This document shows, piece by piece, positions 31,497-48,928 of a stretch of 64,000 bases of DNA. Below the pieces are notes generated by a model. It was not told the origin of the DNA, ran no database searches, and saw nothing but the letters and a program-made list of their open reading frames with translations. This stretch comes from an uncultured Candidatus Saccharibacteria bacterium (GTDB taxonomy: Bacteria; Patescibacteriota; Minisyncoccia; Phycocordibacterales; UBA9973), in assembly GCA_964446965.1 (NCBI GenBank), contig CAYUQD010000003.1, forward strand, positions 3,989 to 67,988, read 5' to 3'. The position numbers were made by a program, and so were the translations under genes. Numbering within the stretch: position 1 is the first letter of the stretch; every line of letters begins with the position of its first letter.

Positions 31497-32762
31497 TTAA
31501 TATGAGAACTGCCAGAGGAGACCGGTCTGTTTGTCGACGAAATACACACGTTGCGCCCCTTCGTCTACAGAAAGCATCGTCATGTCATATGAAGCACTCG
31601 TGTTGTCATAGAGAGTTGTTGCAGTGACTGCACCGGTGTTGATCCGGTAGAGTTTGTCACTAAACGATATTGTGCCTTGGTACCACGCATCAGGATATTG
31701 TGCCTCTGCGACAGTATCGTTGCCGGCACAGATGAGGTCGTCGGTAGTGAGCCAAGCGCATTTCTCGGGCATGACTTTGATATTGAGGGTACGAGTCGTG
31801 TTGTTCTTTGTGTTGAGGATCTTTGAGACGAATGCTGTATCAGTACTCTGTGAGTAGAGTATGTATGCCCCAGAGGGACTCACACTTGCGGTCAGACCGT
31901 TGATGTCCCCGATGACGCGACGAAGTTTCTTTTCAGTGGTATCGATTTTGTAGAGGTATCCAGGTGCTTGGGCAGTTGCCTTGGTCTGGAGATAGATCGT
32001 CTTTGCGGTCGGCCACGAGAGGATCCATTCTCGGAATGGAGTGCTCACGATGTCTACCTTCTTTGCATTGAGACTCGTCGTGGTTGAGAGAAGTGCACCA
32101 TTAGCATCTATTGCAATACGTGCAACCTGTGTACCATCTGGAGATGCGACCGCAGAGATAATGTTGTCGGGGAGATATACCCCTTCATGTTGCGTACGAG
32201 TGCCGTTGGGGTTGGGTGGAGGGATCGGGACACTATATGTTGCAACAGTACGTGCATCTGGACGAATAAAACGCAGGAGTGCTGTTGTAGACTTGTCCGC
32301 AAAGACCGTCTCATAAATATTGGGGATGTAGACGTTCGAGATCTGGAGCGGTACTGCGTCGTCCTCTATCTCGTACACATACCCATTGCTGCGTGAGACA
32401 TAGCGTACGATGCGTTTGATAACGGTCTGTAGTGTCGGCTTTGCTTTGGGTGTGTTGGGGTCTGCCGCGATCGTGAGGGTTGAGGATTGTGTGAATGCGC
32501 TATACCCTGCTACTGCACTTGCGCTCATGAGGCGAAATGCTGAAGGAGCTGCTGATTGGGATATTGGGATTGTTGAGGTTGGAGTATCGGGGATGAGACC
32601 GGGAATGTTGGTGGGATCCCCACTATCACCTATCGGAAAGAATGCCGAAAAGTCAGTGATCGCAGGCACTCCCGGAGCGGTCTGTCGACTCTTTGCATAC
32701 AGATACCATCCGACACCTGCGACAACAATAACGATAAGTATGATAATGAGGCCCTTGCGCAT
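31497..32762 (-). CDS. Membrane-anchored extracellular protein, beta-propeller-like (last gene of the T4SS-like cluster)
   Basis: N-terminal TM (MRKGLIIILIVIVVAGVGWYLY). Repeated beta-strand-rich segments with S/T-D-G motifs resemble PD40/TolB-type blades. Confidence 0.5.
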   Translation of the reverse strand: MRKGLIIILIVIVVAGVGWYLYAKSRQTAPGVPAITDFSAFFPIGDSGDPTNIPGLIPDTPTSTIPISQSAAPSAFRLMSASAVAGYSAFTQSSTLTIAADPNTPKAKPTLQTVIKRIVRYVSRSNGYVYEIEDDAVPLQISNVYIPNIYETVFADKSTTALLRFIRPDARTVATYSVPIPPPNPNGTRTQHEGVYLPDNIISAVASPDGTQVARIAIDANGALLSTTTSLNAKKVDIVSTPFREWILSWPTAKTIYLQTKATAQAPGYLYKIDTTEKKLRRVIGDINGLTASVSPSGAYILYSQSTDTAFVSKILNTKNNTTRTLNIKVMPEKCAWLTTDDLICAGNDTVAEAQYPDAWYQGTISFSDKLYRINTGAVTATTLYDNTSASYDMTMLSVDEGAQRVYFVDKQTGLLWQFSY

Positions 32763-32777
32763 ACGAGTAGTATATCA

Positions 32778-34592
32778 CTAGAGAGCGTATGCAGCAGGAT
32801 TGCTTTTGCAAATCTGATATTCTCGCATCTTTTTTGCGACGGTTGCATTCACGACAGCACTGTTTGCATTGCAACCACCCCCTGCCCCAGCTTGGTAGAC
32901 ACGAAATGCTCCTTCGGCACTACCACCACACTGTTGCAACCCCTGTTTGAGTAGGTTGATACCTGCGGTTACGTTATCTTCGGGGACGAGAATGGTCTGC
33001 CATCCAGTGAATGGAACACTTCTATTGATCCAGTGTGTCCCCCCTTCTTTTACCCCCTCACGCCAAGCCGCAGTGTTGTATCCTGTTGGGAATTTTGTTA
33101 TCTGCATGAGTCCCCCACCTTTGCTAAATCTCCAGTCGAGACCGTATCCTGCTTGAGAAGAATTGATAGATTTGGGACAGATGTTGAGGGTTTGTGAATC
33201 AGTAAATTTTGTCCCATCGAGCTTGATACCACTTCCGACGAATGCAGTTCTCGAAGGCACGCCGCTCACACGAACATTCTCATCACATCCGATGACGTTG
33301 GGTACCCAACTAGACTCGACCGTGATGGTCGCTTTGACGAGGCAGGCATCGATGGACTTTTGTTGAGAGAGTATGGTGACCATGTTCACATACACGGGCT
33401 TTGCTTTAATCGTCTGCCCAGTGAGCGTCTGATAGAATGCGGGATCGATGACTGCTTTTTCTACCCCCACCTCCACACTCGCCACATTAATACTATTCTC
33501 CACCAACTTCGGATTGATTGTATTGAGAATGAGATACGCCGAGAGTGCCAGCAATAACCCAATCAATGCAGTCTTGAATCCTTCTTTAGACTTCGCTTGA
33601 ATGAACGGAACATCAGAGGTGAGAATTGCATACCCTTCATACATCAACCGCAACACCAACACCACTGCAGTGAGCCCAATCAATGTCTTGAAGGCAAAGT
33701 TCAAAAATCCATTGATATCACAGACTGCATTTTCACCAATCTTTCCCTCAAGTTTCTGTTGTGCACACAAATCTGGATCCATCAGTACTGCAAGTCCAGG
33801 CCATGGTGCAAGCAAGTGATAGCTCTTTGCATCAAATGCTGCTTGTTCTGCTTGGCTCCCTGCCCCGATATATCCCTTGGTACTATCGAAGTCTCCGGCG
33901 CGGGAGTCGAGGGTTGTGGTTGTGCCTTTTTGTTTGATGATGTGGCGAAAGAAGTATTTTTTGTCCGGGGTGAGGCCGCTGATGTTCCAACGATAGGTCC
34001 CATCATCGCTGATTCCTTCGAGATCAGTCCCTGATCCTGTATGAGCAACTGCCACGAGCTTGTCGCTCGGTCCACCATCTGTTACGAAGGGTGATCGGGA
34101 ATATTCAAGTTCTATCTTGAGGTTGTTGACACTCGGATACACACTCGTATCTATTTTGCCCGAGATCGTCGCAGTCTGTCCGGTCGTATCAAAAGTGAGT
34201 GGCCATTTGTAGAATGACGCCGTCGCGTTGCCAGTGTTGACGATGAGAGTAGTCGTGACAGTGGTAGCAAATCCTGACATTCCGATACCTCCGCCCGGGA
34301 GTTTGAGCACTGAGAAGTAGTATGTGCGGTTAGTCGCATACGCGCTCCCCGCAATAGTCCATACGACACTACCATTGGTTGCAGACTGGATATTTGTGCT
34401 CGCTGGTGCGACTGGTGGAACGGGGTTGGGACCGTTGTAGAGTTCAAACCGAGCAGTAGCGTCGGTGACGCCGGTCATCGTCACGACGATACTAGTGGGT
34501 GTCTGTGTTGCGGTGAGTGGATACATCTCCGCAGAGGCAGATGTGGTGCAGAGAGAGAAAACAAATATTAAAAAGAGAAATAGTTTTTTCAT
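32778..34592 (-). CDS. Fusion protein: signal peptide, FN3-like domains, VirB2/pilin-like two-helix TM hairpin, C-terminal lytic transglycosylase (SLT/VirB1-like)
   Basis: Signal peptide MKKLFLFLIFVFSLCTTSASA. TM hairpin FLNFAFKTLIGLTAVVLVLRLMYEGY...FKTALIGLLLALSAYLILNTINP. C-terminal SLT motifs ATITVESSW (catalytic Glu-Ser), GLMQITKFPTGYNTAAW, YQAGAGG. Confidence 0.7.
   Translation of the reverse strand: MKKLFLFLIFVFSLCTTSASAEMYPLTATQTPTSIVVTMTGVTDATARFELYNGPNPVPPVAPASTNIQSATNGSVVWTIAGSAYATNRTYYFSVLKLPGGGIGMSGFATTVTTTLIVNTGNATASFYKWPLTFDTTGQTATISGKIDTSVYPSVNNLKIELEYSRSPFVTDGGPSDKLVAVAHTGSGTDLEGISDDGTYRWNISGLTPDKKYFFRHIIKQKGTTTTLDSRAGDFDSTKGYIGAGSQAEQAAFDAKSYHLLAPWPGLAVLMDPDLCAQQKLEGKIGENAVCDINGFLNFAFKTLIGLTAVVLVLRLMYEGYAILTSDVPFIQAKSKEGFKTALIGLLLALSAYLILNTINPKLVENSINVASVEVGVEKAVIDPAFYQTLTGQTIKAKPVYVNMVTILSQQKSIDACLVKATITVESSWVPNVIGCDENVRVSGVPSRTAFVGSGIKLDGTKFTDSQTLNICPKSINSSQAGYGLDWRFSKGGGLMQITKFPTGYNTAAWREGVKEGGTHWINRSVPFTGWQTILVPEDNVTAGINLLKQGLQQCGGSAEGAFRVYQAGAGGGCNANSAVVNATVAKKMREYQICKSNPAAYAL
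33472..33910. repeat. Intragenic direct repeat, copy A (~440 bp, near-identical to 35101..35550)
   Basis: A core of ~235 bp is identical base for base (ctacccccacctccacactcgcc...aaggcaaagttcaaaaa). There is a short divergent patch, then ~140 bp more at high identity. Encodes the shared TM hairpin. Confidence 0.8.
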
Positions 34593-34632: not shown

Positions 34633-36276
34633 TTACTTTCCGTTTACTGACCAGTGCCAAGCTTCGCTCGGAAGATTTTTGAACCCATACTTTGCCGCAT
34701 TGATAGATAGCCATACATAACAAGGATTGCTATGGTCACGCTGCCCTATTCGTGAACCGTTGCAACTAAAATCAATCGCCATTCCTCGCTCGTGCATTGA
34801 GTGTCCAGGACGAGCTGTGGGAGGTCGGCACGATGTAGATGGTGTCGATTCATCAGGGCATCCGTGAGCTACACGCAACTGCTTTTGACGTATTGTAGAA
34901 CGTGATCCGTATCCCGTGAGGATGATATTGTTATTTTTTGCAGCGGCGATCATAGCAGTTAGTTTTTGGGCGATTGATTTGCACACATTAATTTTATTTG
35001 GTGTACCAAATGTAGTGACATCAACAAATCCTTCGGGGCAGGATTTTGTATCCCCTCCCACTGCATATATGTTGTTGGGTTCGAGTTCAGTTTCTTCATC
35101 TACCCCCACCTCCACACTCGCCACATTAATACTATTCTCCACCAACTTCGGATTGATTGTATTGAGAATGAGATACGCCGAGAGTGCCAGCAATAACCCA
35201 ATCAATGCAGTCTTGAATCCTTCTTTAGACTTCGCTTGAATGAACGGAACATCAGAGGTGAGAATTGCATACCCTTCATACATCAACCGCAACACCAACA
35301 CCACTGCAGTGAGCCCAATCAATGTCTTGAAGGCAAAGTTCAAAAAACCATTGATATCACAGACACTATTTTCTGATACTGTCTTCTCAACGTACTTCTT
35401 TTGATAACAGAGATCTGGATCCATCAGTACTGCAAGTCCAGGCCATGGTGCAAGCAAGTGATAACTCTTTGCATCAAATGCTGCTTTTTCTGCTTGGCTT
35501 CCTGCCCCGATATAACCCTTGGTACTATCGAAGTCTCCGGCGCGGGAGTTCAATACCGTCGCCGTACCTTTGAGGAGAACAACATGACGAAAATAATATT
35601 TTGTACCAGGCGTGAGTCCTGAGATATTCCAATAATAAGAACCGTCAGAGGCTACACCTTCGACACTACCTCCATCAGTAGTGTGCGCTTTTGCGATGAG
35701 TTTGTCGCTTGGACCCGCAGGAGTGGTGAAAGGGGTTCTCGCGTAGTGGAGTTGGAGCTCGAGCGCGCTTGTGTTGGGATACTTTGTGGTGTCGATGAGT
35801 CCTGAGATCATCGCAGTCTGTCCGGTGGGGACGAATGTCAGTGGCCAGCGATAGGTGTCGTCGGGGATACCTGCAGAACCGTTGATGATGGTTTGTGTTG
35901 CGGTGACCGGTTCATCTGTACCGGGAGAGATACCGTTGAGTTTGACTGCTCGGATATAGAGCGTTGTAGCGGGGTTGATACCAGATATCGACCATGCGAC
36001 GACATTGTTGGTGACAGGTTTGATCAGATCGCTCGCAGTACCGACAGGGAGAGTGTTTTGGGTATTTTGTGCAGCAATCGTAGAAAAAGGGGCCCTCAAT
36101 ATCTCGAGCTTGTATTGTGCGGTGTCGTTGGGTACACCAGTCATCGTCGCGGTCACAGCTGTCGTGGTGACAGAGATAGTGAGTGGGTATGTGGCAGCAT
36201 GTGCTGTGTCGATACGTGCCACACCCCCAACGAGGAAGTTTGCGACAAGTAGTAAAAGGAGCAGGAATGGTTTCAT
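34633..36276 (-). CDS. Paralogous fusion protein: signal peptide, FN3-like domains, same pilin-like TM hairpin, C-terminal M15-family (VanY/LAS) zinc peptidase
   Basis: The central ~150 aa is near-identical to the neighbouring paralog. C-terminal GYGSRSTIRQKQL...PGHSMHERGMAIDF...SEAWHWS has the HxxxxxxD and H zinc ligands of LAS/M15 D,D- or L,D-peptidases. Confidence 0.7.
   Translation of the reverse strand: MKPFLLLLLLVANFLVGGVARIDTAHAATYPLTISVTTTAVTATMTGVPNDTAQYKLEILRAPFSTIAAQNTQNTLPVGTASDLIKPVTNNVVAWSISGINPATTLYIRAVKLNGISPGTDEPVTATQTIINGSAGIPDDTYRWPLTFVPTGQTAMISGLIDTTKYPNTSALELQLHYARTPFTTPAGPSDKLIAKAHTTDGGSVEGVASDGSYYWNISGLTPGTKYYFRHVVLLKGTATVLNSRAGDFDSTKGYIGAGSQAEKAAFDAKSYHLLAPWPGLAVLMDPDLCYQKKYVEKTVSENSVCDINGFLNFAFKTLIGLTAVVLVLRLMYEGYAILTSDVPFIQAKSKEGFKTALIGLLLALSAYLILNTINPKLVENSINVASVEVGVDEETELEPNNIYAVGGDTKSCPEGFVDVTTFGTPNKINVCKSIAQKLTAMIAAAKNNNIILTGYGSRSTIRQKQLRVAHGCPDESTPSTSCRPPTARPGHSMHERGMAIDFSCNGSRIGQRDHSNPCYVWLSINAAKYGFKNLPSEAWHWSVNGK
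35101..35550. repeat. Intragenic direct repeat, copy B
   Basis: See copy A; offset 1629 bp. Confidence 0.8.
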
Positions 36277-37232
36277 TAGTTAAATAAAAGGGTAAAGGTC
36301 TTTTCGACGTGTTGGAGTCCGTAGGTGACCGTGGTGATGGCGAGGTCGAGGATACTCTGTCCGCGTCTGTCTGGTCGGGATAGACCGATCTGGTTTGCCT
36401 GAGGGCGCGACACACTCTCTCCATCAACCTTGAGATCAAAGGTGAGGTCTGCGAGTACGGTGCGAGGAATAGAAAAGAAATACGGCTCAAAATGGAGTAC
36501 TATCCCCTGCTCGATGAAGGGAATGGTCGAGAGGTAGCCATGAGCATAGTCGATGTATCCTTGGCGAGTCTCGTACGCAATGACTTGTGGCGTGCGCAGA
36601 GGACTCAGTCGACTCATCCCTGCTCCTGCAAATGACCCTCCTCCGATCGAAACCTCGATGGTTTCTTGGGGGTTAAATTCGTTGTGTTTGATCAGGAGAC
36701 TCGACTTGCCAAAGCCGCTCTCTGCAACGAGTGCAGAACCATTGCGAGACCAGTTATAACTCAACCCTTTTGGGGCGCTCGCAGAAGGGATGACACTGTA
36801 GCGGATGAGGCCGTTGACGGGCAGGAGCGCCTTGCCTTTGTAGAATGGGTGTGTGTAGCTGTCGACCGCCTCCCAGAGCAAGTCGATACTTGCCGGACGC
36901 AAGACGAGTGTTCCGCTTGCTGATGTTCCATTTCCTGAAGCGGTAATACCAATAGTCCCTGTTGCGCCTGCTGCTGGAGCTACAACAGCGACACTAGTCG
37001 TCCCTGTCCCCTTTGCGATGACGACATTGTTGTATGTCCACGAGATGTTGGCTTGGTTGAGATCCATTGCATAGCTCGTTGCGGTCAGTGTGACAGTACT
37101 CCCCGGAGTAGGATTTAGAGGGATAGTGTCGATTGAGATGTCGCCATCAATACTCTGCGCATGAGCAGTACCTACTAGTACAAAAATCAGTATTAGGGTT
37201 GCAATACATGTGCGCACGAATGCCATATGCAT
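36276..37232 (-). CDS. Secreted protein of unknown function (T4SS-cluster member)
   Basis: Start placed at MHMAFVRTCIATLILIFVLVGTAHAQ (signal peptide); the longer ORF to 37544 is an unlikely extension. Beta-rich, Ser/Thr/Gly-rich N-terminal half. Its stop overlaps the downstream start. Confidence 0.5.
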   Translation of the reverse strand: MHMAFVRTCIATLILIFVLVGTAHAQSIDGDISIDTIPLNPTPGSTVTLTATSYAMDLNQANISWTYNNVVIAKGTGTTSVAVVAPAAGATGTIGITASGNGTSASGTLVLRPASIDLLWEAVDSYTHPFYKGKALLPVNGLIRYSVIPSASAPKGLSYNWSRNGSALVAESGFGKSSLLIKHNEFNPQETIEVSIGGGSFAGAGMSRLSPLRTPQVIAYETRQGYIDYAHGYLSTIPFIEQGIVLHFEPYFFSIPRTVLADLTFDLKVDGESVSRPQANQIGLSRPDRRGQSILDLAITTVTYGLQHVEKTFTLLFN

Positions 37233-37263
37233 CAGTATAGCACTACAGATAGGTATAGAGATG

Positions 37264-39075
37264 CTAGGACGAGCGGTTTTGTTCGCTAAATTCTTTCTTT
37301 GCGGCACGGATGGAGATGACTTGGCTTGGGTCAGAGGTAATAATCTGGTCTTCGGTATAGGACGCGATGATCTTGATGGCGACATGTTTGAGTCCTGCAA
37401 AGAATATTCCTTCTCCAACACCACTCTCGAGAAGTAGGAACTTTTCTTCATCGGTGAGGTTGAATGTCTTTTGGAGGACATCCATTGTCGACGGAGACTG
37501 TTTGAGCAGGAGTTGAATGGATGAGTTGGTGACGATCGGGACACCGTATGGACTCTTCATGAAGTCCCCCACGTCCTGCGTGATCGTACAGAGTCCGAGG
37601 TAATATTTGCGACCTCGTTTTGCGATCGAGTAGAGGAACGACGCAGTGTCATCACTCTTCATCATCCACCATGCCTCATCGACGACGAGCAATCGCTTTT
37701 TGAGCTCCTTGCGAACGGCATTCCAGATGAAATGAGTGACGATGTACATCGCCGCTGGTTTGAGATCATCCTCCATGTCGCGAACGGAGAAGACTACAAA
37801 CTTTTTGTTGATGTCGACGTTGGTTGGTTGGTTGATGAAGGTCGCCCAAGATCCGTGTGTGTACTTGGTGAGACGTTGGAGGATGGATTCTGTCCCCTCC
37901 ATCCCAGAGAGCACCATCTCAAAGTCTGAGAGAAGTGGTGGCTCGATCGTTGCAAAGTCGCTCTCTGGACTAATGTCTTTGAGTGAGTACGTCTCGGTGA
38001 TGGCGCGGTCGATGAGTGAGTCTTCTTCGGGAGAGAGTCCTCCGAGCATGATACGGAATAGTCCGACGAGGTTGATGATGTTGCTGCGCAATACATCTGC
38101 AGGAGATTCGTCGACACGAGGGATCGGTAGGTCAAATGGGTTGATGTGGTTGTCTGATGAAAGTGAGATATTGAAATAGCGTCCACCGATCGCTTCGGCG
38201 AGGTATTCATACTCTCGTTCTGGGTCGATGACGATGACATCGGTATCGAACATGAGGGTACGGATGATCTCGAGTTTGGTCGCATAGGATTTGCCGGCAC
38301 CAGACTTGGCAAAGATGATGGAGTTGTAGTTCTCGAGCGAGAATCGGTCAAAGATCACGAGTGATGAGTTGTGACGGTTCACCCCATAGAGGATACCTTC
38401 GTCCCCGGTGAGATCAAATGAGACAAATGGGAACATACTCGAGATGGGTTCTGAGTTGAGTTTCTGGGTGATACCAAGCTTGTCAGTACCGAGCGGGACA
38501 ACGGTCTTGAAGCCGTCTTCTTCTTGGAAGAGTGCGGGCTTGATATATATCATCTTGCTCTCGAGCATGCTCTTGATCTCGCTCTCTGTACGGAACAAAT
38601 CGTTCTCGTTGTCAGCGTAGATAGTGATATAGAAGCCGATGTTGAACATCTTTTCTTGGGCTTGGGTCAGGCTATCACGGAGCTCCTCGAGGTCTTGGTA
38701 GGCAGTATCGAGCATTGGGTCGCGAACAACACCCTTTTGTTGGCGGACGATGATCTGACTTTCGACTTCGGCGATCTTTTTTTGGAAGTGTTTGAGGAGT
38801 TCGGCAGTCTCGATCGGATTGACGTAGATTGCCACATCAAAGATCTTGTCGAGGTTGATGATGGGAGTGAGCCAGTTGTCGGTGAGAAAGCGTGGATATG
38901 ATATGACAAAAAAGGTTCGCACAATCTTGTCCCCGATACGCATGCTCTTTGGGGTGATCTCGATTGCAGAGGGTGCGATCTTGTCCGCGAGCTCCATAGT
39001 CGCCCATTCATACACCTGTGAGGGTGCGATAGGGAGAGATTTATTTTCTTTCTTTTTGCTACCAAAGAGTGACAT
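37264..39075 (-). CDS. VirB4/TrbE/CagE-family type IV secretion ATPase (short monoderm PrgJ/TcpF-like form)
   Basis: Walker A FAKSGAGKSY, Walker B LLVVDEAWWMM (the VirB4 DEAW motif), CTITQDVGDF. The N-terminal region (RTFFVISYPRFLTDNWLTPI) is typical of Gram-positive VirB4 homologs. Confidence 0.85.
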   Translation of the reverse strand: MSLFGSKKKENKSLPIAPSQVYEWATMELADKIAPSAIEITPKSMRIGDKIVRTFFVISYPRFLTDNWLTPIINLDKIFDVAIYVNPIETAELLKHFQKKIAEVESQIIVRQQKGVVRDPMLDTAYQDLEELRDSLTQAQEKMFNIGFYITIYADNENDLFRTESEIKSMLESKMIYIKPALFQEEDGFKTVVPLGTDKLGITQKLNSEPISSMFPFVSFDLTGDEGILYGVNRHNSSLVIFDRFSLENYNSIIFAKSGAGKSYATKLEIIRTLMFDTDVIVIDPEREYEYLAEAIGGRYFNISLSSDNHINPFDLPIPRVDESPADVLRSNIINLVGLFRIMLGGLSPEEDSLIDRAITETYSLKDISPESDFATIEPPLLSDFEMVLSGMEGTESILQRLTKYTHGSWATFINQPTNVDINKKFVVFSVRDMEDDLKPAAMYIVTHFIWNAVRKELKKRLLVVDEAWWMMKSDDTASFLYSIAKRGRKYYLGLCTITQDVGDFMKSPYGVPIVTNSSIQLLLKQSPSTMDVLQKTFNLTDEEKFLLLESGVGEGIFFAGLKHVAIKIIASYTEDQIITSDPSQVISIRAAKKEFSEQNRSS

Positions 39076-39095: not shown

Positions 39096-39737
39096 TTATT
39101 TGGAGTTTACGGTTGCTTGGGTAGTACTTTCTCCGGGATTGAATGTTTTGTACAGAAGTTCGATCATTTCTTCGGTACCGAGTTGTGCGACACGGAGGCC
39201 GACACGCGAGAGTCCTTGTTCGACGACATTGACGCGTTCTTCGAGTTGGGTGCGCTGTTCTTCGAAGTCGCTCACTGTTTGCGCAGCGGTCTGTTTGGAG
39301 CCGAGGAATGAAAATACCTTACCAATCCCCGTTTGTTGGCTGAGTATCGGAGGGATATATGGGATCACCACAAAGAAATTCTTGCGCATGATGTTGACTT
39401 GGTCGGTGAAGCTCTGGATGAACTGGATGTACTCGCGTGTCTGTACTTGGAGGAGGGACTCAGTTTGCTGCTTGAGACGGTTTTGCAATGTCAGAATATA
39501 TGGACGGATGTCGTATCGTCTACTCTGGATCACGATCTGTATTGGGAAGTCGAGTGTGTTGAGGAAGTTTTGGAACTGCATGAGGGTTGCGCGCTGTTCG
39601 TCATAACTCTTGAGGGAGAGGTTGATCGACGAGACGAGGACGGCCATTGCGAGCGTGCCGTCTTTGAGGACGACGATACCATCGCGAACTTCTTTGACGG
39701 GGACGAATTGTTGGGCAGGTGTGCCAAAGGTTGCCAT
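39096..39737 (-). CDS. Hypothetical T4SS-associated soluble protein (resembles a VirB4 N-terminal-domain-like fold; inference)
   Basis: 213 aa, no TM. VKEVRDGIVVLKDGTLAMAVLVSSINLSLKSYDEQ echoes the N-terminal pattern of VirB4 proteins. Tightly coupled between the PrgI-like gene and virB4. Confidence 0.45.
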   Translation of the reverse strand: MATFGTPAQQFVPVKEVRDGIVVLKDGTLAMAVLVSSINLSLKSYDEQRATLMQFQNFLNTLDFPIQIVIQSRRYDIRPYILTLQNRLKQQTESLLQVQTREYIQFIQSFTDQVNIMRKNFFVVIPYIPPILSQQTGIGKVFSFLGSKQTAAQTVSDFEEQRTQLEERVNVVEQGLSRVGLRVAQLGTEEMIELLYKTFNPGESTTQATVNSK

Positions 39738-40841: not shown

Positions 40842-40845
40842 TCTT

Positions 40846-41367
40846 CTACTTATCAGGAATTTCTCGATAGGGATCGATCGATTTGATGCCACTAGGAGCG
40901 GATGATGGTGCGGCTGAAGGAGTCGATGGCGCAGGTGTTGCTGAAGGATCGGTAGTATAGGTGCGCTTCGTGGGAGCGAGCGTCGATGGAGTAGTCATGG
41001 TTTGATTGAGGCGAGCGAGCATGTCGGATGGGGTTGGGGCTGAAGTAGACGCCTGGGTAGGCTCAGATAATTGAACATTGCCATTTTTAAGAAATGTATA
41101 CATCTTATCAATAATTTTTTCCATATTTCCCTTTTCAAGTAACAAAGAAAGCTGTGTTTCTAAGTTCTCTCCCAACTGTTTTATATCATTTTTCTTTAAA
41201 AGAAATAATGTCATCTCCCCATCAAGTATTGTAGATACTTCTTCTGTAATATTGAATTCTTTTTTTAATTCATCCAAGAATGTATCAATTTGTGCAAGCA
41301 TACCAAATTCCTTGGAATTTGGATCAAGAGATTCTAATAGTGTAAGCGTTTCCTCGTTTATATCCAT
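40846..41367 (-). CDS. Hypothetical protein with a Pro/Ser/Thr/Ala-rich C-terminal tail
   Basis: 173 aa. Helical N-terminal half, then SAPTPSD...PSATPAPSTPSAAPSSAPSG low-complexity tail. Coupled to the upstream VirB6-like gene. Confidence 0.45.
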   Translation of the reverse strand: MDINEETLTLLESLDPNSKEFGMLAQIDTFLDELKKEFNITEEVSTILDGEMTLFLLKKNDIKQLGENLETQLSLLLEKGNMEKIIDKMYTFLKNGNVQLSEPTQASTSAPTPSDMLARLNQTMTTPSTLAPTKRTYTTDPSATPAPSTPSAAPSSAPSGIKSIDPYREIPDK

Positions 41368-41371: not shown

Positions 41372-44300
41372 CTATCCTAAACCAAGTTGCTTCCGAATGC
41401 TAGAAATATCGCTGTTGATACGATTGCGTTCAGCAATAACTGTATTTGGTGACGCCATACCGTGATTTACATTTGAAGCCTGATAATTTTGAACATCGAG
41501 TACGGTGAGACTGTCAAGATCGTTGTTGTTGGCATGTCGAGCAACTGGTGAAAGTGTTTGTTGCATACGGAGTTTATCAACACCAAGTTGTTTGAGGCGA
41601 CCTTCCAGTTTTGTTCGCTCGCCGGCACTAATAGTATCTTTTGCCTTTGATTCTCGACTATTGATAACATTTTCTCGAGCTGCTCCTTGAATTGCTCCTT
41701 GTCCAATCGCTGCAGCTGCACCCACTATAGCGCCACCGGTTACTACACTTGCCCCTGCTGCAGTTGCAGCCGCACCGACAGCTGCACCAGGAGTGGTAAC
41801 TCTGTTGGTGGATCGTTGAGCTACTCTTGATAGGAATGTGCCGCGTGCAAGTTTTGCCTGGTATGTTTTTTCACGTGCGCGATTGACTTCTGTGGTTGTC
41901 TCTACGCGCTTATTTCCTTGAGCTGCTTGCGCAGTAAGATCATTTTGTCGGAAATCAACTTCATTAAACGCAACACCGTTTGCGAGATCGGTTGTTTCCG
42001 CTGCTTTACGTCGTGCATCATATCCAGCTTCCCATGCTTTGTTTTTCTTGTCTTGGGTAACAGCCGCAGCGCCTCGAAGTTGAAATCTCTCAGCGCGATC
42101 GACAAGTACTTTCTCGTTTCGACTAATTGCCTCTTTGAAGCCCCCTTGTGTTTTATTGGTTCCAGTTCCTGTCATTTTAACTAGTTTATTATCCAGCCCA
42201 ATACCAGTTTCTTTTTCAAACCTTTTTCCAACAGCGCTATTTCTCGCATCGTATGTCGCAGTAGACATTTTTGTCCCTGTTTGCATTGTTCTATCAGCAA
42301 GACGCGCATACCATTTACCGCTCGCTGAAGCATCTTGTAATGTTTTAGATTCAGCAAGCCTGGTACCTAATCTTCCTAAAGTATTTCTACCAGCAAGCGC
42401 AGCTCCACCAGTCGCAACCCCAAGCGCTGCCCCACCGACAAATCCTACTGCTTTTTCAGAGTAGTTTTGTACTAACTTCCCTGCAAATCCCGCGTACTTT
42501 TCAGCTATTTTCACACCTTGCTTAATCATCATATATACAATAAGCATCGGGATTGCGGTGTAGATAACTATCTCAAGGAATGACCCAGAATCTTTGTTGA
42601 GATACACCGTGATGAAATCTGTCTCCAGGAATGAATAGACAATATATAAAAAGAATACAAAGATCGGTGCAAGGAGTGCGTATCCTGTCAGGTCACTAAG
42701 CCATTTTTTCCACGAAAGTTCGCTGATAGAATTCAAAAAAGGAATGTTACCCTGAGTGAGGACTGCAAATGGTGCAAAGATCATACAGAGATAGAGTCCG
42801 ATCACGCGTCCGAGGAACATGAAGGTGGTCTTCCAAAACATAACCGCAACTGCAAAGAGAATGATCGCTGCAATGAGACTGACAACGATATAATACGTCG
42901 CATAGTCATAACTATTGAGATCGACTGCGGTAGTACCAGAACCGTCTTTATTTGGGAGAGCCTTGTTTGCGCTGAGGACTTTTGCACTAAAGAGCTTTTG
43001 CGGGTTGAATGCGGACACTATCTTTTCGGACAGTGGTTTGAAGTTACCGGTACCTTCCTTGAGGTTGGGTATGTTGCCGTCGCTATTTCTCGGCTCACAC
43101 TTACCTTCACACACTTCTACAGAATTATAAAACACACGCGCAACGACATTGGATATGTCGATGACGACTCGGGTTGCAAAGAGTGAAAAGTTGATGAGGA
43201 TGGCGTTGAGGATGAGGCTCGCGACCACGCTCTTCATGTTGGTCTTGGTGTTGAATACAGCAGAGAGTCCTGTCCAGACGAGGATAATAATAAAGAAAAT
43301 ATTGGAGATATCGCGCACGAGTTGCCATCCACGCACCGCAAACTCTGCACGATATGATGTGTCAGAGAGTGAGTATCCGAGAAAGAAATCAAAGAGATTA
43401 CCCATGATACCTGCGAACCATTGAATAGGAACATAGAAGAAGTAATACACGAGTTGTGCAATACATCCCACAAATGTCCCACTAATAACACCGATTCCAC
43501 AGTTAGGTAATGTATCTGTTTGAGTGTCAGATGTGTTTGCAGCAGCAACACTTGCCTCGGTCTGACTTGCTGCCTCGGCGTTGGTGGCAGGCATTCTGAA
43601 TTTTTGAGAACTTGCGATACGGAAGTACGGTTTGTTACCGTCACAGAGGTTGTTGAATCCTTGCACGCTCTCGCTCTCACTATTGAGATTGAGTTGGTTG
43701 CCATTAGTATTTTGACCACAATACCAAAGTTCAGCTTGGTATTCTGTAGGGTCCCCTACTTTGAATTTATCATTTTTTGCGATGTATGCCCCGAGCGTAC
43801 CATTGCTCAGGAGTGGGGCGAATTGGCCGACGAGGAATGTGACATTAAATTTTGCATACTGTGTGTCACCTCTTTGAAAGCCTAGACCAGTATTAGTATC
43901 AAGTTTTGCGCGATAGTGGTATATCTTTGATGTCGGTGTTTCTTCAGAAGGTATAGTACATGTACTTTGTGTTGGACATAGTGGAGTGCCATCGCCTTTG
44001 AGGTCGTTATTCATTGGAGAGTGGGCGTATGGTACATCAGAAAATACACACTTTGTCCCATCTATTGCTCCAGTCCCAGGGTTGATATCGCAAATACGAA
44101 GCATAAACACATGTGGTACAAAATCTTGGAAAAGTGTACCTGTATAAAAATCCTTGATATAGGCCCACTTTTTTTCTTTATAAGGTATGTCATTAACAGG
44201 CAAAAAACTTCCCTGAAAATTGAATTTGAATGATGAGATCACCTGTGTCGGAGTAGTAGAGGTGGGATCAACTGGTCCCTGCCCTTGTGTCGGAGTGGTA

Positions 44301-44539
44301 GTTGTCCATGTACCTGGTCCTTGAAATCCGCTTTGACTCGTGAAATTTGCGATCTGCATCGTCAGACCCTTGGCAGGATCAGTCCCATCAAAGAGGTTGA
44401 TGTATTCATTGATGTCTGCATGCGAGAGTGCGACATTGCCAAATAGTGTCACGAGAAATACAAGCGAAACGATCGCCTTTGTCATATTGCGCCCAAAAGA
44501 TCTAGCTATCCGAAACCATAGCGAGGAATGAGAATTCAC
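41372..44539 (-). CDS. VirB6/TrbL-like polytopic membrane protein with a large N-terminal extracellular domain and C-terminal coiled-coil extension (1055 aa)
   Basis: Signal/TM at the N-terminus, a ~350-aa extracellular domain, about seven TM helices with a ~100-aa loop after TM3, then a ~350-aa hydrophilic coiled-coil tail. The architecture parallels PrgH/TcpH/ConG-type VirB6 homologs. Confidence 0.55.
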   Translation of the reverse strand: MNSHSSLWFRIARSFGRNMTKAIVSLVFLVTLFGNVALSHADINEYINLFDGTDPAKGLTMQIANFTSQSGFQGPGTWTTTTPTQGQGPVDPTSTTPTQVISSFKFNFQGSFLPVNDIPYKEKKWAYIKDFYTGTLFQDFVPHVFMLRICDINPGTGAIDGTKCVFSDVPYAHSPMNNDLKGDGTPLCPTQSTCTIPSEETPTSKIYHYRAKLDTNTGLGFQRGDTQYAKFNVTFLVGQFAPLLSNGTLGAYIAKNDKFKVGDPTEYQAELWYCGQNTNGNQLNLNSESESVQGFNNLCDGNKPYFRIASSQKFRMPATNAEAASQTEASVAAANTSDTQTDTLPNCGIGVISGTFVGCIAQLVYYFFYVPIQWFAGIMGNLFDFFLGYSLSDTSYRAEFAVRGWQLVRDISNIFFIIILVWTGLSAVFNTKTNMKSVVASLILNAILINFSLFATRVVIDISNVVARVFYNSVEVCEGKCEPRNSDGNIPNLKEGTGNFKPLSEKIVSAFNPQKLFSAKVLSANKALPNKDGSGTTAVDLNSYDYATYYIVVSLIAAIILFAVAVMFWKTTFMFLGRVIGLYLCMIFAPFAVLTQGNIPFLNSISELSWKKWLSDLTGYALLAPIFVFFLYIVYSFLETDFITVYLNKDSGSFLEIVIYTAIPMLIVYMMIKQGVKIAEKYAGFAGKLVQNYSEKAVGFVGGAALGVATGGAALAGRNTLGRLGTRLAESKTLQDASASGKWYARLADRTMQTGTKMSTATYDARNSAVGKRFEKETGIGLDNKLVKMTGTGTNKTQGGFKEAISRNEKVLVDRAERFQLRGAAAVTQDKKNKAWEAGYDARRKAAETTDLANGVAFNEVDFRQNDLTAQAAQGNKRVETTTEVNRAREKTYQAKLARGTFLSRVAQRSTNRVTTPGAAVGAAATAAGASVVTGGAIVGAAAAIGQGAIQGAARENVINSRESKAKDTISAGERTKLEGRLKQLGVDKLRMQQTLSPVARHANNNDLDSLTVLDVQNYQASNVNHGMASPNTVIAERNRINSDISSIRKQLGLG

Positions 44540-44569: not shown

Positions 44570-45475
44570 TTACCACAAATTGAGACGCAATGCCTTCACA
44601 AGTCTGCCCTTGCCGTATCCAAAATCATTGAGATTAACAATAGGTTGGAATGTTTCTATTGAATCCGTTACAAAACCAAGTGTATCGGTCGAGCTATTGT
44701 TCCAGAATGGTGTTGCGACACGTTTTTTGTACAGAGGATTTGCAAGTTGTGGAGTTTTGTTGAGGCAGTAGGTGAGAAGTTCTTGGAGTTGTACTCCTTT
44801 GATATCGAACGTGTCATGGTTTGAGACCTCACGAGCGACGTCTTCGTCGGTACGAATGGACTCTGCGATAGTGTAAAAGCGTCGTTCGAGTGTCTTGAGG
44901 TCAGCGAGTTCTTGGGGGGTAAAGATGATATTGAGATCAGCATCACTACACTGAGGTAGTGGGGTTGATCTTGTTGGGGGTGGAGGGGTGGGGTTACTAC
45001 CAGGATTAGAGGTCCCAGGAGTTGTCGGAGTGGTAGTGGTAGTACCCGGACCTGTACCAATAGGTGTTGTGTTGGGAGTCGTAGGTGTCGTGTTCGGAGT
45101 AGAGGGTGTTGTACCGGGGCCATTAGTGTTTGTGCCTGAGGGTGAGGTTGTCGGACTGAGTGTCTCGTCGGTAAAGACGCTCACTTGTGTCTCAGATGGA
45201 GTGAGAGATCCTGACCATGATGTCTGTGAAGGAGTTTGTCCTGTAGGTGTGTCAGTCGTCGTACCGGATCCGTCTGTGGTGAAATCTGATGAGAGACTTC
45301 CTGGATCGTCGGGAGACACGGTACCACTACTGCTACTACCTGTTACAAATTCACGAAAGCTCAGTGGGTTGCTACCATTTTCAGTAGCGGTCTTGCGGGC
45401 AGAGAGCCACAATCCCCCCAGCACGATGGCTGCGACAATGACTATGATGATAAATATAGGGATAAAACGTCTCAT
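44570..45475 (-). CDS. Membrane-anchored protein with a Thr/Pro-rich linker and C-terminal globular domain
   Basis: N-terminal TM (FIPIFIIIVIVAAIVLGGLWL); ~150 aa of T/P/S/G low complexity; ~120-aa C-terminal domain. Confidence 0.5.
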   Translation of the reverse strand: MRRFIPIFIIIVIVAAIVLGGLWLSARKTATENGSNPLSFREFVTGSSSSGTVSPDDPGSLSSDFTTDGSGTTTDTPTGQTPSQTSWSGSLTPSETQVSVFTDETLSPTTSPSGTNTNGPGTTPSTPNTTPTTPNTTPIGTGPGTTTTTPTTPGTSNPGSNPTPPPPTRSTPLPQCSDADLNIIFTPQELADLKTLERRFYTIAESIRTDEDVAREVSNHDTFDIKGVQLQELLTYCLNKTPQLANPLYKKRVATPFWNNSSTDTLGFVTDSIETFQPIVNLNDFGYGKGRLVKALRLNLW

Positions 45476-45477
45476 GG

Positions 45478-47613
45478 TTATAGATTACTATAGAAATACT
45501 GACTTGACTGTATTGATTGTAATACATGACTGTTGGGAGTGTCAGACTCCACTCGAGCGACGGGCACGACTGGAGTAGTATTGATGACGTATGCTTCGTT
45601 GATACACGTCGTATCTACTGGTGTACCTGCTGCTGCTTGTGCAGCTATGTAGCGCGCCTTTGCTCGAGAGACAATGTCCTGTGTTTGGCGATGGATCTCA
45701 GTGAGTTGTTCGAGCGCGTCTTCGGTATTGGAGATATTTTGGTTGTACTGAGTAGTGTACTCAGTGATGTTGCGGTTGTATCCGACGAGTTTGCCCGCCT
45801 CTTTGTACGCACTCTTTGCAAATGCCCGTGCATCTGCTTGTTGAAATGTTCCGGATTCTAGACTTGCATATGCAGTAGCGAGACTTTCTGGGTCAAAACC
45901 AGATGCATTGAGCTCATTGATGATGGTCAAGAGAGATGCTTCGAGGTATGGAATGATACTACTGACGTTGCCGGGCACATTGAAAGCACCAGCACTTTGT
46001 CTAATCATAAAAGTTTCTGGTTTGAGTTTGCGTTGTGTGTCGGTGACCTTGTCATAGAGAACTGGTTCACCGGCGAGAACTGGTGGAGGTGAAGTGTTCC
46101 CTCCACCAAAGAGTCCTCCAAGGATAGGAATACTACTCATGAATCCTTGGAGTGCAGTTGGACCACTTGCGGGTGGTTGCGAGAGACTACCGGTGAGTGC
46201 TTGGAAGTTATCAGAGAGCCCTGTCCCCCAACTCGGGTTGGGTCCGGGGAGGCAGTAGTCGAGCCAGCCGAGTGTTGGGACGATGCGCTCCATTGCGATC
46301 TGAGCATCACTCGCACGACTGATGTAGTCGTGTTGTGTCTGGAGAATGGCGCGGAGTTGTTGCGGACGACTAATATCAAAGTCGTTGTTATATCCACCAG
46401 TCGCGCTCTGGTACCCGAGTTGAATATCAGTAGTAGAGACACTTGCGAGGGGTTGACCGTTGGTGCCATAGACGACATTTGAGCCGACACCGATACCACT
46501 ACTGGTACCACCACGACTACCAACGTTCCCGAGACCATTTTGGAAAAGTCTGTTGATGAGCTGGTCAAAGAATGACCCAAGGACTTCATTGATCTTGTCT
46601 GCTTGTTCGAGCTGGCGCACTGCTGAGTTGGTCACATAGGATGTCTGCTGTGCAATGATGGCTCCCGGAGTGACAGTCTCGTAGCGAATGCATTTCGGAG
46701 CACCTGCTGGTGCGGCAGGAGTGATAGGGCCAGAGACAGTACCAGGAAGTTGCTCGTCCACCGGGACACCATTGGCAGTCGTTGCGCTGGTGAAGCGAAT
46801 GTCCTCGTACTCAGCACATTTCTTCATACTGAGGAAGCCGTTGCCTTGGACGAGTTCGCTCTTGATGTTTTCTTGGGCGTCAGAGATTTCGCGACTGACT
46901 TGCTCGCTCGCGCTAAAGTATGCCCCAAGTGGGTTGTTGCGGAAGTCGAGAAATGAATCCCACCCCCCATTAGTGAAGTCTTTTTGGAACTTTTCGTACT
47001 TTTGTCCCTCAGGAGTATTCATTACTTGACCGACGCGTCCATCATCAAATCCGGTGACTTGCGATGTAATGGTAGAACGGATAGCGTTGCCAAAGATTGA
47101 GTTGTTGTTCGGCACTCGAGCGAGGAAACTCTGGATCTTTTCGTCATTGATGGACTTGAGGTACGAGTCCATGTCGCGTACATAGAGTGGGTTGCCACTA
47201 AATCCGGTGTTGACCCAGTTGAGGGTTTTGTCAGAGACTTTTTGGAGGGCGTTCTTTGCGACTGCATAGGCGATGCCATCGAGACAGTTGGTCTTTTTTG
47301 CTTGCTTCTCAGCGAGCTTTTTTGCTTCTGAGTCTTTGACGGGGACCATTTGTGATGCACCAGGGATTGCGTAGAGGGCTTGTTGGCCGACAGCCGCAGG
47401 GTTTGGGCTCGAATTCCCAAATAAATCTGACGCCATACTCGAAATAGAACTTCCGATGTTGGTACAGTTGAGGATGGCACCACCGACTCCGCTAAATGAC
47501 ATTCCTTGAAAGCTCGTCGTTGCCGCACCTGGAGTACTTGGGGTGAAGGATTGTGCGCCGACAACGATCGGTGTACACAGTGCAAGTATGAATATAAACA
47601 GGGATCGTTGCAT
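45478..47613 (-). CDS. Large secreted protein of unknown function (711 aa)
   Basis: Signal peptide MQRSLFIFILALCTPIVVGAQS. No TM. Gly/Ser/Thr/Asn-rich. Confidence 0.55.
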   Translation of the reverse strand: MQRSLFIFILALCTPIVVGAQSFTPSTPGAATTSFQGMSFSGVGGAILNCTNIGSSISSMASDLFGNSSPNPAAVGQQALYAIPGASQMVPVKDSEAKKLAEKQAKKTNCLDGIAYAVAKNALQKVSDKTLNWVNTGFSGNPLYVRDMDSYLKSINDEKIQSFLARVPNNNSIFGNAIRSTITSQVTGFDDGRVGQVMNTPEGQKYEKFQKDFTNGGWDSFLDFRNNPLGAYFSASEQVSREISDAQENIKSELVQGNGFLSMKKCAEYEDIRFTSATTANGVPVDEQLPGTVSGPITPAAPAGAPKCIRYETVTPGAIIAQQTSYVTNSAVRQLEQADKINEVLGSFFDQLINRLFQNGLGNVGSRGGTSSGIGVGSNVVYGTNGQPLASVSTTDIQLGYQSATGGYNNDFDISRPQQLRAILQTQHDYISRASDAQIAMERIVPTLGWLDYCLPGPNPSWGTGLSDNFQALTGSLSQPPASGPTALQGFMSSIPILGGLFGGGNTSPPPVLAGEPVLYDKVTDTQRKLKPETFMIRQSAGAFNVPGNVSSIIPYLEASLLTIINELNASGFDPESLATAYASLESGTFQQADARAFAKSAYKEAGKLVGYNRNITEYTTQYNQNISNTEDALEQLTEIHRQTQDIVSRAKARYIAAQAAAGTPVDTTCINEAYVINTTPVVPVARVESDTPNSHVLQSIQSSQYFYSNL

Positions 47614-48512
47614 TATTGTTGTAGTATACCGTATTCGGACAAATAGTCAGTCAGTCCGATGACTGCAGTGTCGAGTTTGGTGTTGTAGTTTTTGTACAAG
47701 GCGACACCGATGAGTGCGGAGATACCATTATCAGAGAGTTGTTGAATGATCTCAAACGAGTCCCCTACTCCGGCAATACCATTGATAATATCGAGGTGGT
47801 AGTTGGCGACTCCGACAGGAGTCCGGACTGCGGCGAGCTCTTTGGTGAGTTTGATGTATTGTGCGCGTGTTGCAGTGAGTGCTTCGAGACCGCTTGTATC
47901 TTCGGTTTCGATAGCTTGGACGATGATGGCGATGTCGTCATCCCCTTTGCTATATCGAGAGAGAATATTCTTTACTTGGGTAGAGTAGGTGGTGAGAGAT
48001 TGACTCGTCGTCTGGATCGTCTGGATGTCTTTTGAGGAATAGGTATTGGTGACGAGGTCGGTATCGATCGATGAGCCAAAGTTTGCGGCGATCTCTTGCA
48101 ATGTTGCACTATCGACTGCCTCGGACTGACCGAGTGCTATCGCGAGCGTGTAGAGTTCGCGAGAGAGACGGTCGGTCTCGTTGGTAGGGGTTGTTGCAGT
48201 ACCCGAGACACCGAGCGACGCCTTTTTGTCTTCTATGATCTGTCTGTTGGATATGCCGTGAGTATAGAGGACTGTCGGGTCGAGGCCCCAGAGCTTTTCT
48301 TCCCAGTCGGGGATACCGTTACCATTTGTGTCTTGGTTGAGGATGTCTCCGACGGTGGTGTTGTCGACGGTGACGCGAGACTCGTCAGTATCTGACGAAA
48401 AGAGCCCTCGGAACCACGATGTCTGGACGATCAATACGATCGCGAGTACTCCGATAGCAATGCCGCCACGAATGAGGAACTGTTTACTTGGTCTGTTGGT
48501 GTCAGGCTGCAT
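47613..48512 (-). CDS. Membrane-anchored extracellular protein (possible VirB8-like position)
   Basis: Start at the internal Met (MQPDTNRPSKQFLIRGGIAIGVLAIVLIVQTSWF), placed just after the upstream stop. Single N-terminal TM plus a ~260-aa extracellular domain. Confidence 0.45.
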   Translation of the reverse strand: MQPDTNRPSKQFLIRGGIAIGVLAIVLIVQTSWFRGLFSSDTDESRVTVDNTTVGDILNQDTNGNGIPDWEEKLWGLDPTVLYTHGISNRQIIEDKKASLGVSGTATTPTNETDRLSRELYTLAIALGQSEAVDSATLQEIAANFGSSIDTDLVTNTYSSKDIQTIQTTSQSLTTYSTQVKNILSRYSKGDDDIAIIVQAIETEDTSGLEALTATRAQYIKLTKELAAVRTPVGVANYHLDIINGIAGVGDSFEIIQQLSDNGISALIGVALYKNYNTKLDTAVIGLTDYLSEYGILQQ

Positions 48513-48520
48513 AAGATATA

Positions 48521-48928
48521 TTAGAGTCCGTAGCTCCCACCAGAAACGCCGTAGTTTGTCGTTTTTTTCACAGGGAATGGTACTGAACCCATCGAGCACG
48601 TACTGAGGTTGGGGATGAGGTCGTGACGCCCGAGGACCCATTGAGTTACTTGAGGTTTCTTGGTAGGGCTAGTCGTATAGAGTGGAATGACTCCGTATAC
48701 ATTGCTCACGATGTTGCTGACACTGCCTCCTTGGAGAGTAGAGAGACCAGCTGCGAGGTTGCTCGCAAGTACGACTGGTCCTGTGCCCGTGCCAATACAG
48801 GTCACTGATGGAATACGGATCGAGAGAACCTTGCCACCAAATGGTTGTGTCATACCTGCGGCTCGCGCCATGTATGGGAGCGAGATGATACAGAGAATGA
48901 GTACGACGATGATGTGATAGTGTTTCAT
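48521..48928 (-). CDS. Small secreted protein (first gene of the cluster)
   Basis: Signal peptide MKHYHIIVVLILCIISLPYMARA. Gly/Ser/Thr/Val-rich mature part. Confidence 0.45.
   Translation of the reverse strand: MKHYHIIVVLILCIISLPYMARAAGMTQPFGGKVLSIRIPSVTCIGTGTGPVVLASNLAAGLSTLQGGSVSNIVSNVYGVIPLYTTSPTKKPQVTQWVLGRHDLIPNLSTCSMGSVPFPVKKTTNYGVSGGSYGL

Follow-up and report, generated by a model that had tools for sequence, protein, structure and literature searches.

A 64,000-nucleotide stretch of DNA (the window) from an uncultured Candidatus Saccharibacteria bacterium (GTDB: Patescibacteriota, Minisyncoccia, Phycocordibacterales, UBA9973; contig CAYUQD010000003.1 of assembly GCA_964446965.1, positions 3,989 to 67,988) contains a minus-strand gene cluster at 31497-48928 that resembles a type IV secretion system (T4SS). 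This locus raises the question whether such a gene set belongs to a mobile element, is the remainder of one, or is a resident machine of the chromosome, and which task the machine may have. The initial annotation, made from the sequence alone, had proposed a chromosomal, non-conjugative T4SS of monoderm type. Our results support this interpretation, but it has already been published for related bacteria: very probably, the cluster is the known chromosomal T4SS of ultrasmall Patescibacteria, in this case from a genome of Parcubacteria/Paceibacteria type, descended from the monoderm (MPF-FATA) conjugation machinery. A second feature looks unreported, namely pilin hairpins that are fused to rapidly exchanged wall-cutting domains.

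Components of the membrane translocon

The extent of the cluster was confirmed, and its components rest on significant matches to hidden Markov models (HMMs). It comprises 13 open reading frames (ORFs) of at least 100 amino acids, fewer than the fifteen consecutive genes counted initially. All are on the minus strand.

The ATPase of the system is a VirB4-type protein of 603 aa without an N-terminal domain (37264-39075), assigned by Pfam, NCBIfam and its motifs. It matches NCBIfam NF045971, the VirB4-like conjugal transfer ATPase of the CD1110 family, with 4e-112 and 375.9 bits (cutoff 325), and the alignment spans model positions 181-733 of 752. Pfam matches were obtained for P-loop_TraG (6.6e-25) and AAA_10 (7e-11). 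Walker A (KSGAGKS) and Walker B (VVDEAWW) are both intact, in agreement with the DEAW Walker B noted initially. The best plasmid-borne relatives all belong to Bacillota and Actinomycetota (CD1110 family, 27-35% identity), which indicates the monoderm affinity of this VirB4.

Directly upstream of virB4, a TrsD-like protein of 213 aa (39096-39737) is the equivalent of the VirB4 N-domain, encoded as its own gene. Formerly listed as unknown, it matches positions 2-118 of NF045971, positions 105-284 of NF045975 and TrsD (NF041427). The E-values are 3e-13 and 1.6e-6 for the two VirB4 models and 2e-6 for TrsD, the last being under the cutoff of its model. As these matches cover the N-terminal positions missing from the ATPase, VirB4 is split in two genes; the TrsD-like part is an ORF of its own in 76 of 80 related loci. 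Upstream of the TrsD-like gene lies a PrgI/VirB3-like small membrane protein of 136 aa (39740-40150) with a match to PF12666 (1e-11, 45.7 bits, gathering score 27) and a hydrophobic hairpin at aa 29-60. The PrgI assignment was correct; its supposed position directly upstream of the ATPase was not, since the TrsD-like gene lies between.

The 1055-aa polytopic protein (41372-44539; length counted from the GTG start, an ATG at 44485 would give 1037 aa) starts with a signal peptide and a Cys-containing outer domain of about 300 aa, followed by a transmembrane core at aa ~345-715 and a hydrophilic C-terminus of about 340 aa. It had been described as VirB6/TrbL-like, for which no direct match exists in Pfam or NCBIfam; none of the 45 orthologues scanned matches TrbL, and a full-length profile gave no match among PDB sequences. 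With a profile of the core (aa 335-725), distant Patescibacteria proteins were retrieved at 1e-33 to 1e-46. Five of these match Pfam TrbL/VirB6 with 7.5e-6 to 1.2e-4, one of the five above the gathering score. The matches cover nearly the full model, and in all five the TrbL stretch lies within the part that aligns with the core. The core was also modelled with AlphaFold2 (pLDDT 83.7, pTM 0.81), and the model was compared with 350,542 PDB chains. The top three matches were TrwI/VirB6 from the T4SS of R388, with E 0.016-0.088, a probability of 0.98-1.00 and a target-normalised TM-score of 0.40-0.46; Legionella DotA came next. We accept the protein as a putative extended VirB6 on this indirect evidence of transitive TrbL profile and predicted fold.

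Between VirB6 and PrgI, an acidic protein of 173 aa without transmembrane segment is encoded (40846-41367). It is fast-evolving, cytoplasmic and recognised by position. All related loci contain an equivalent of 176-390 aa, sometimes as two ORFs, and the family keeps a short C-terminal tail (…DPYREIPDK). A role as substrate, chaperone or adaptor is conceivable.

The predicted membrane translocon module hence comprises PrgI/VirB3, a split VirB4 (TrsD-like N-domain and ATPase) and an extended VirB6.

Chromosomal setting and inheritance

For comparison, one genome per GTDB species was scanned. At least 594 loci with close VirB4 relatives were found, and the best 80, ranked by VirB4 similarity, were compared with the window. 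Their VirB4 proteins are 74-96% identical to that of the window. All 80 come from metagenome-assembled genomes of Parcubacteria/Paceibacteria type, labelled variously as Nomurabacteria or Paceibacterota. In most of them the order uvrD-ksgA-(135)-299-711-(301)-VirB6-(173)-PrgI-TrsD-VirB4-328-pilin protein(s)-421-yidC(opposite)-dnaA recurs, with numbers giving protein lengths. Within the limits set by 10-kb flanks and contig ends, TrsD was present in all 80 loci, the 328-aa gene in 77, PrgI in 76, the 421-aa gene in 69, VirB6 and yidC in 64 each and dnaA in 58. The embedding among core genes noticed initially, with ksgA and uvrD on one side and yidC, dnaA and dnaN on the other, was thus confirmed, and the synteny comparison places the block beside dnaA in most of these species-level genomes.

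In the same genomes, the median amino acid identity is 58.5% for DnaA, 50% for UvrD, 45.8% for KsgA, 45.5% for YidC and 77.5% for VirB4, the VirB4 figure being somewhat inflated because the loci were chosen by VirB4 similarity. It is unusual that a secretion ATPase is better conserved than DnaA.

An ordinary integrative conjugative element (ICE) or transfer module would contain much of what was found, as VirB4, PrgI, TrsD, VirB6 and wall hydrolases are the conjugative gene set of Gram-positive bacteria. Its relaxase, coupling protein and integrase would have to lie just outside the window, which extends beyond the cluster by 15 kb on the upstream and 31 kb on the downstream side. Yet ksgA/uvrD and yidC/dnaA are the neighbours in most of the 80 genomes, and these 15-31 kb on either side contain housekeeping genes only. 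The composition is also typical: the GC content of the cluster is the same as that of its flanks (0.43-0.51). No direct, att-like repeats were found bracketing the cluster, and the only tRNAs of the window, at 2.5 and 5.5 kb, do not flank it. Domains of relaxases, of VirD4/FtsK-type type IV coupling proteins (T4CPs) and of serine recombinases were absent from all ORFs of at least 300 aa in the 64-kb window. Relaxases were reported in just 103 of the surveyed Patescibacteria genomes, rarely close to virB4 (Quinonero-Coronel et al. 2025, PMC12102498). We therefore regard an ICE as extremely unlikely.

The initial statement that relaxase, VirD4, integrase and att site are missing from the window held, except that one recombinase is present. 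This tyrosine recombinase (59376-60398, plus strand) matches XerD, XerC and XerA over the full length with about 1e-69 (1.5e-69). It lies 10 kb from the cluster, with ksgA, uvrD, an M23 peptidase, comM and other housekeeping genes between. Judged by these matches, it is a housekeeping enzyme of dimer resolution and not the integrase of an element.

Decay of an ancient integrated conjugative element to a non-functional remnant could explain the missing relaxase, T4CP and VirB8, the split VirB4 and the ORF on the opposite strand that interrupts the cluster. Against this, all ORFs of the cluster are intact and closely packed, the catalytic motifs of VirB4, SLT and VanY are preserved, VirB4 is more conserved than DnaA, and the TrsD/VirB4 split is kept as two ORFs in 76-80 related loci. 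Furthermore, the homologous system of 'Ca. Southlakia epibionticum' is essential (Wang et al. 2023, PMC10633639). This explanation is hardly credible.

Both the ICE and the remnant reading were dropped because of the synteny and conservation across related genomes. The cluster is a vertically inherited core machine of the chromosome under strong constraint, neither an ICE nor a remnant. The monoderm VirB4 relatives, the synteny and the lack of relaxase, T4CP and att site in the window agree with the chromosomal, non-conjugative T4SS of the initial annotation.

Pilin hairpins joined to cell wall hydrolases

Two neighbouring genes encode the cell wall hydrolases of the cluster, both recognised initially as SLT and M15 enzymes fused to pilin-like hairpins. 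The first protein (604 aa, 32778-34592) has a signal peptide, an extracellular region of about 230 aa, a hairpin of VirB2 pilin type (aa 250-376, nt 33465-33845) and a C-terminal SLT lytic transglycosylase domain (3.6e-6, above the gathering score; TVES motif present). The second (547 aa, 34633-36276) is built alike from signal peptide, N-terminal region, hairpin (aa 265-391, nt 35104-35484) and C-terminal VanY/M15 D,D-peptidase. Its VanY domain (2.2e-10) has the motifs SxHxxGxAxD and ExxH, as SMHERGMAID and EAWH. In both proteins the enzyme domain is C-terminal to the two-transmembrane hairpin.

Orthologues at the same position match T4SS_pilin (PF18895) in 50 of 62 cases (best 9e-10) and TrbC/VirB2 (PF04956) in 6 of 62. 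The hairpin profile also retrieves free-standing Patescibacteria pilins of 100-230 aa from the candidate phyla radiation (CPR) at 1e-24 to 1e-38. Accordingly, both proteins are predicted to carry a VirB2-type pilin hairpin. The predicted topology is VirB2-like: the signal peptide is cleaved, both termini are outside and a Lys-rich loop faces the cytoplasm; the enzyme domains would thus be located on the outer face.

The SLT and VanY genes are tandem paralogues with 60% amino acid identity over 414 residues and unrelated C-termini. The hairpin DNA (33455-33907 versus 35094-35549) shows 98% identity over 280 nt and 94% identity over 154 nt; the N-terminal regions beside the hairpins are just ~45-55% identical at protein level. 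The near identity of the hairpin DNA points to gene conversion, or else to a duplication with domain swap that is very recent.

The predicted envelope module thus consists of two Sec-exported hairpin proteins, an SLT glycan-strand lyase and a VanY/M15 peptide-stem peptidase. Apart from the two modules, the cluster has six conserved, exported accessory proteins, described below.

Turnover of the C-terminal domains

The hairpin profile was run against every ORF of 80 aa or more from the window and the 80 loci, and hairpins within 10 kb of virB4 were considered. One hairpin ORF was found in 67 loci, and two in five loci and in the window. The gene lies just downstream of virB4 and the 328-aa gene in L001-L080. 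The hairpin ORFs are 171-733 aa long (median 441), and in 69 of 77 the protein extends C-terminally by 100 aa or more. These extensions form at least 11 clusters that cannot be aligned with each other. Pfam recognised NlpC/P60 (14), VanY/M15 (11), YkuD (5), SLT_2 (4), Peptidase_M15_4 (3) and SLT (3), all of them peptidoglycan enzymes and invariably C-terminal to the hairpin. Even among genomes with 87% or more VirB4 identity to the window, at least seven different C-terminal types occur. In the two closest genomes (VirB4 95-96%), SLT_2 stands in place of the VanY and SLT of the window. The N-terminal Ig-like domains of the hairpin proteins (TIG, Big_1, Filamin) are also gained and lost among loci.

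Neither the fusion of pilin and hydrolase nor its turnover is mentioned in PMC12102498, PMC10633639 or the other literature searched, a search that is incomplete and does not prove novelty. The combination of pilin hairpin and fast-swapped wall-cutting domain thus looks like an unreported feature. It resembles polymorphic effector and lysin architectures in having a constant N-terminal module, here the hairpin, and unrelated, swapping C-terminal enzymes. The resemblance is an analogy only, as evidence of a toxin/immunity pair was not found here and the recognised domains all act on peptidoglycan.

Two explanations for these fusions were weighed. According to the first, the hairpins of the same T4SS are mere anchors, and the hydrolases are enzymes of VirB1/CwlT/PrgK type which open the cell's own wall, with neither a pilus nor an attack on the host. 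The hydrolases of Gram-positive T4SSs are known to be membrane-anchored and multi-domain, bulky domains are found on both sides of the hairpin, and the combination of SLT with a peptidase is classic for the VirB1 type. Among cultivated Paceibacteria, some are parasites of methanogenic archaea, which have no peptidoglycan; this would argue for a self-wall role in those lineages. On the other hand, the hairpin belongs to a family of free-standing CPR pilins, and a plain anchor would not need DNA homogenisation of 94-98% between paralogues. Moreover, the chemistry of the own wall should be stable, yet the C-terminal type varies among genomes with VirB4 identity of at least 87%. We consider this explanation possible, although somewhat doubtful.

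According to the second explanation, the T4SS pilin of this Parcubacteria/Paceibacteria clade has turned into a scaffold for interchangeable peptidoglycan-active warheads (NlpC/P60, VanY/M15, M15_4, YkuD, SLT, SLT_2 and several unknown domains), displayed outside the structure built by the T4SS. They would breach the wall of the bacterial host, determine the host range and track the wall chemistry of the host. An outward, host-related role of the enzymes is weakly favoured by the rapid turnover of the domain type. As a whole, this proposal is tentative and rather unlikely to be correct.

Comparison with known systems

The T4SS of 'Ca. Southlakia epibionticum' ML1 is encoded by the locus SEML1_0006-0019, which adjoins dnaA (Wang et al. 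2023, PMC10633639). This locus is essential according to transposon sequencing (Tn-seq), is closest to Gram-positive conjugative T4SSs, possesses pilins and has neither coupling protein nor relaxase (PMC10633639). Its order of hydrolases, VirB4, a hypothetical protein (TrsD), PrgI and VirB6-like protein (PMC10633639) is the same as in the window. Further likenesses are the adjoining dnaA/dnaN, VirB2-type pilin modules, distal exported Ig-like proteins and the lack of relaxase and coupling protein in the locus. ML1 differs by six free-standing pilin genes in a divergent array, by hydrolases that are separate proteins, by two VirB6-like genes and by an NTF2-like (VirB8-type) protein. In contrast, the window has one VirB6-like gene, no detected NTF2-like protein and pilin modules only inside the hydrolase proteins; its 711-, 299-, 301- and 421-aa genes have no annotated counterpart in ML1.

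In the survey of Quinonero-Coronel et al. (2025, PMC12102498), the VirB4 clade of Patescibacteria is sister to MPF-FATA, and TrsD is the most abundant partner. PrgI, VirB6 and VirB2-like pilins are encoded near virB4, with VirB1 homologues associated specifically in Paceibacteria. The neighbourhood of virB4 is enriched in dnaA, dnaN, ksgA, rnpA and rpmH, and T4CP homologues are often encoded distant from virB4 (PMC12102498). The locus described here shares the MPF-FATA-affine VirB4, TrsD, PrgI, VirB6, pilins, hydrolases, rarity of relaxases and proximity of dnaA, dnaN, ksgA and rnpA with this Paceibacteria type, and no essential difference was seen. A 2025 review describes T4SSs of Patescibacteria as required for growth; they may elaborate pili and act as a conduit. 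As the T4SS, the missing relaxase and the dnaA/ksgA setting were described in PMC10633639 and PMC12102498, this kind of system is already known.

With the MPF-FATA systems themselves (CTn2 CD1110 family, pCF10 Prg/Pcf, pGO1 Trs), the cluster has in common a VirB4 above the CD1110 cutoff, PrgI and TrsD homologues, membrane-tethered wall hydrolases and the lack of outer-membrane core components. Those systems are borne by mobile elements, have relaxase, oriT, T4CP, VirB8-like proteins and surface adhesins, and lack VirB2 pilins. The MPF-T systems (R388 Trw, Agrobacterium VirB) provide the best fold match, TrwI/VirB6, and the T4SS_pilin and TrbC/VirB2 families matched by the hairpin. They are diderm, contain VirB7/9/10 and have a small processed VirB2 without extra domains, whereas the VirB6 of the window is extended by large hydrophilic regions at the N- and C-terminus.

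Helicobacter ComB and archaeal Ced take up DNA with VirB4-type ATPases, and DNA uptake was one of the functions suggested initially for the cluster. Such a competence machine would need neither relaxase nor T4CP. VirB4 of the window matches NCBIfam CedB weakly (2.6e-9, far below the cutoff), ComM and a PilB-type ATPase are encoded elsewhere in the window, and in the class ABY1 T4SS genes co-localise with comF, recG and radA (PMC12102498). No recognisable DNA-binding or DNA-processing protein was found in the cluster, which speaks against DNA import. The genetics of Saccharibacteria disfavour it as well. As far as PMC10633639 is summarised in PMC12857230, competence of S. epibionticum relies on comEC and type IV pili, and the bacterium remains viable without comEC, whereas its T4SS is essential. 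According to this summary, the essential role of the T4SS is therefore not transformation. Altogether, a machine for DNA import is very unlikely.

From these comparisons, a possible mode of action of the T4SS can be outlined. VirB4 would power the assembly of the VirB6/VirB3 channel, and also that of a short tube or pilus-like structure for which the hairpin proteins serve as subunits or as anchors. The hairpin proteins would be inserted by Sec; they would then form polymers or attach to the machine, in either case with the enzyme domains on the outside. SLT would cut the glycan and the peptidase the peptide part of peptidoglycan, either of the own cell or of the attached host. The resulting conduit may move macromolecules between epibiont and host, without mobilisation of DNA.

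Several results weigh against the assignment to the known Patescibacteria T4SS. T4CP was not found in a search confined to the 64-kb window. A VirB8-like protein was not detected with profiles of the 301-, 299-, 421- and 328-aa proteins against PDB sequences. Thus, VirB1-type, VirB3, VirB4 and VirB6 components of the minimal VirB1/3/4/6/8 set named initially were found, and VirB8 was not. The fold match of VirB6 is modest (best E 0.016, target-normalised TM-score 0.46). The two hairpins of the window reach 18.7 and 19.3 bits against PF18895, where the gathering score is 26.6, and a hairpin with bulky domains at both ends may be a membrane anchor that never polymerises. Finally, essentiality is known solely for a Saccharibacterium and for no member of Parcubacteria/Paceibacteria.

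Accessory proteins of the cluster

Six exported or anchored proteins of the cluster have no assigned function; the eight or more stated before are reached only if both hydrolases are counted. PHROGs and NCBIfam scans of these proteins were empty.

The 421-aa protein (31497-32762) is anchored at the N-terminus by a transmembrane segment (residues 5-23) and has no Pfam or NCBIfam match. Its profile gave only weak matches to PDB sequences, all to TolB (E 0.025-0.19), so it is possibly a TolB-like beta-propeller. The 328-aa protein (36276-37262) is secreted and beta-rich, with a signal peptide ending in ...GTAHA|Q, and matches no family. In 77 of 80 loci its gene is the next one downstream of virB4. 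The longest ORF extends to 37544, into virB4; the start at 37262 agrees with the length of the orthologues. The 301-aa protein (44570-45475), confined to the closest relatives, consists of an N-terminal transmembrane anchor, a Pro/Thr-rich linker and a small Cys-containing C-terminal domain.

The 711-aa protein (45478-47613) is secreted and mostly helical, with signal peptide and six invariant Cys. Its family is confined to Parcubacteria/Paceibacteria; no known family was matched, and the helical AlphaFold2 model gave no informative fold matches. The 299-aa protein (47613-48512) is anchored by a transmembrane segment and has a conserved acidic motif (D-x-D-G-D-G-I-x-D-W-E-E) and a helical C-terminal part; it has no family match. 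Profiles of the 301-, 299- and 328-aa proteins found no match at all among PDB sequences, so that the VirB8 considered initially at 47613-48512 or 44570-45475 was not recovered. The 135-aa protein (48521-48928), secreted with a signal peptide and poorly conserved, is a candidate member of the system.

Boundaries of the cluster and neighbouring genes

The intergenic gaps in the cluster measure 1-40 nt, except for one of 695 nt (40151-40845), which divides the cluster into two likely transcription units. This gap is filled on the plus strand by an ORF for a Lys/Glu-rich, charged protein of 202 aa (40233-40841). The related loci all have same-strand ORFs in the equivalent space and no homologue of the 202-aa ORF, and no family match was obtained, including PHROGs and NCBIfam scans. 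Probably, therefore, the ORF was inserted in this lineage only or is spurious, and it is probably not part of the machine. The ORF 40086-40841 (plus strand) was considered as a regulator or inverted gene and rejected; its only 'matches' are antisense to the start of PrgI, and it matches no family.

At the 48928 end, ksgA starts 6 nt upstream of the 135-aa gene. The co-oriented run extends through ksgA, uvrD and a 222-aa ORF and ends at 52423. At the other end, where the last cluster gene and yidC converge, there is a hairpin with a 14-bp stem, flanked by an A run and a T run (31456-31489). It is likely a bidirectional terminator that closes the 3' end of the cluster. Apart from it, a scan for promoters and terminators yielded nothing above chance.

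Perfect DnaA boxes at 27110, 27266 and 28673 (region 27067-28700) cluster around dnaA and place oriC beside this gene. The T4SS cluster therefore starts roughly 3 kb away from the probable origin. Cumulative GC skew reaches its minimum at ~30-32 kb of the window. The block of ~21 kb at 31497-52423, with 16 co-oriented genes (T4SS plus ksgA, uvrD and the 222-aa ORF), reads toward the origin. Its transcription is head-on to the rightward replication fork, and related loci are arranged alike.

Between yidD and yidC, a segment of ~1.25 kb contains an ORF for an acidic, coiled-coil-like protein of 345 aa without family match (29469-30506, minus strand). The segment is missing in the closest relatives, where the junction measures 16 nt (L004) or 529 nt (L002). 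By this comparison, it is a lineage-specific insertion beside the origin. Further away, a PilB-type T2SSE ATPase (14774-16486) adjoins a 678-aa DUF11 protein and a 359-aa unknown protein. This region (11331-16486) probably belongs to the apparatus for type IV pili and competence on which Patescibacteria also depend. ComM is encoded at 54175-55680.

Significance

The window does not present a new kind of system; it is a clean and compact example of the Paceibacteria type. The lineage of Patescibacteria represents a large share of bacterial diversity. If the fused enzymes cut the walls of hosts, they would supply the first molecular candidates for what decides how a conduit is opened by these epibionts, and into which partner cells.

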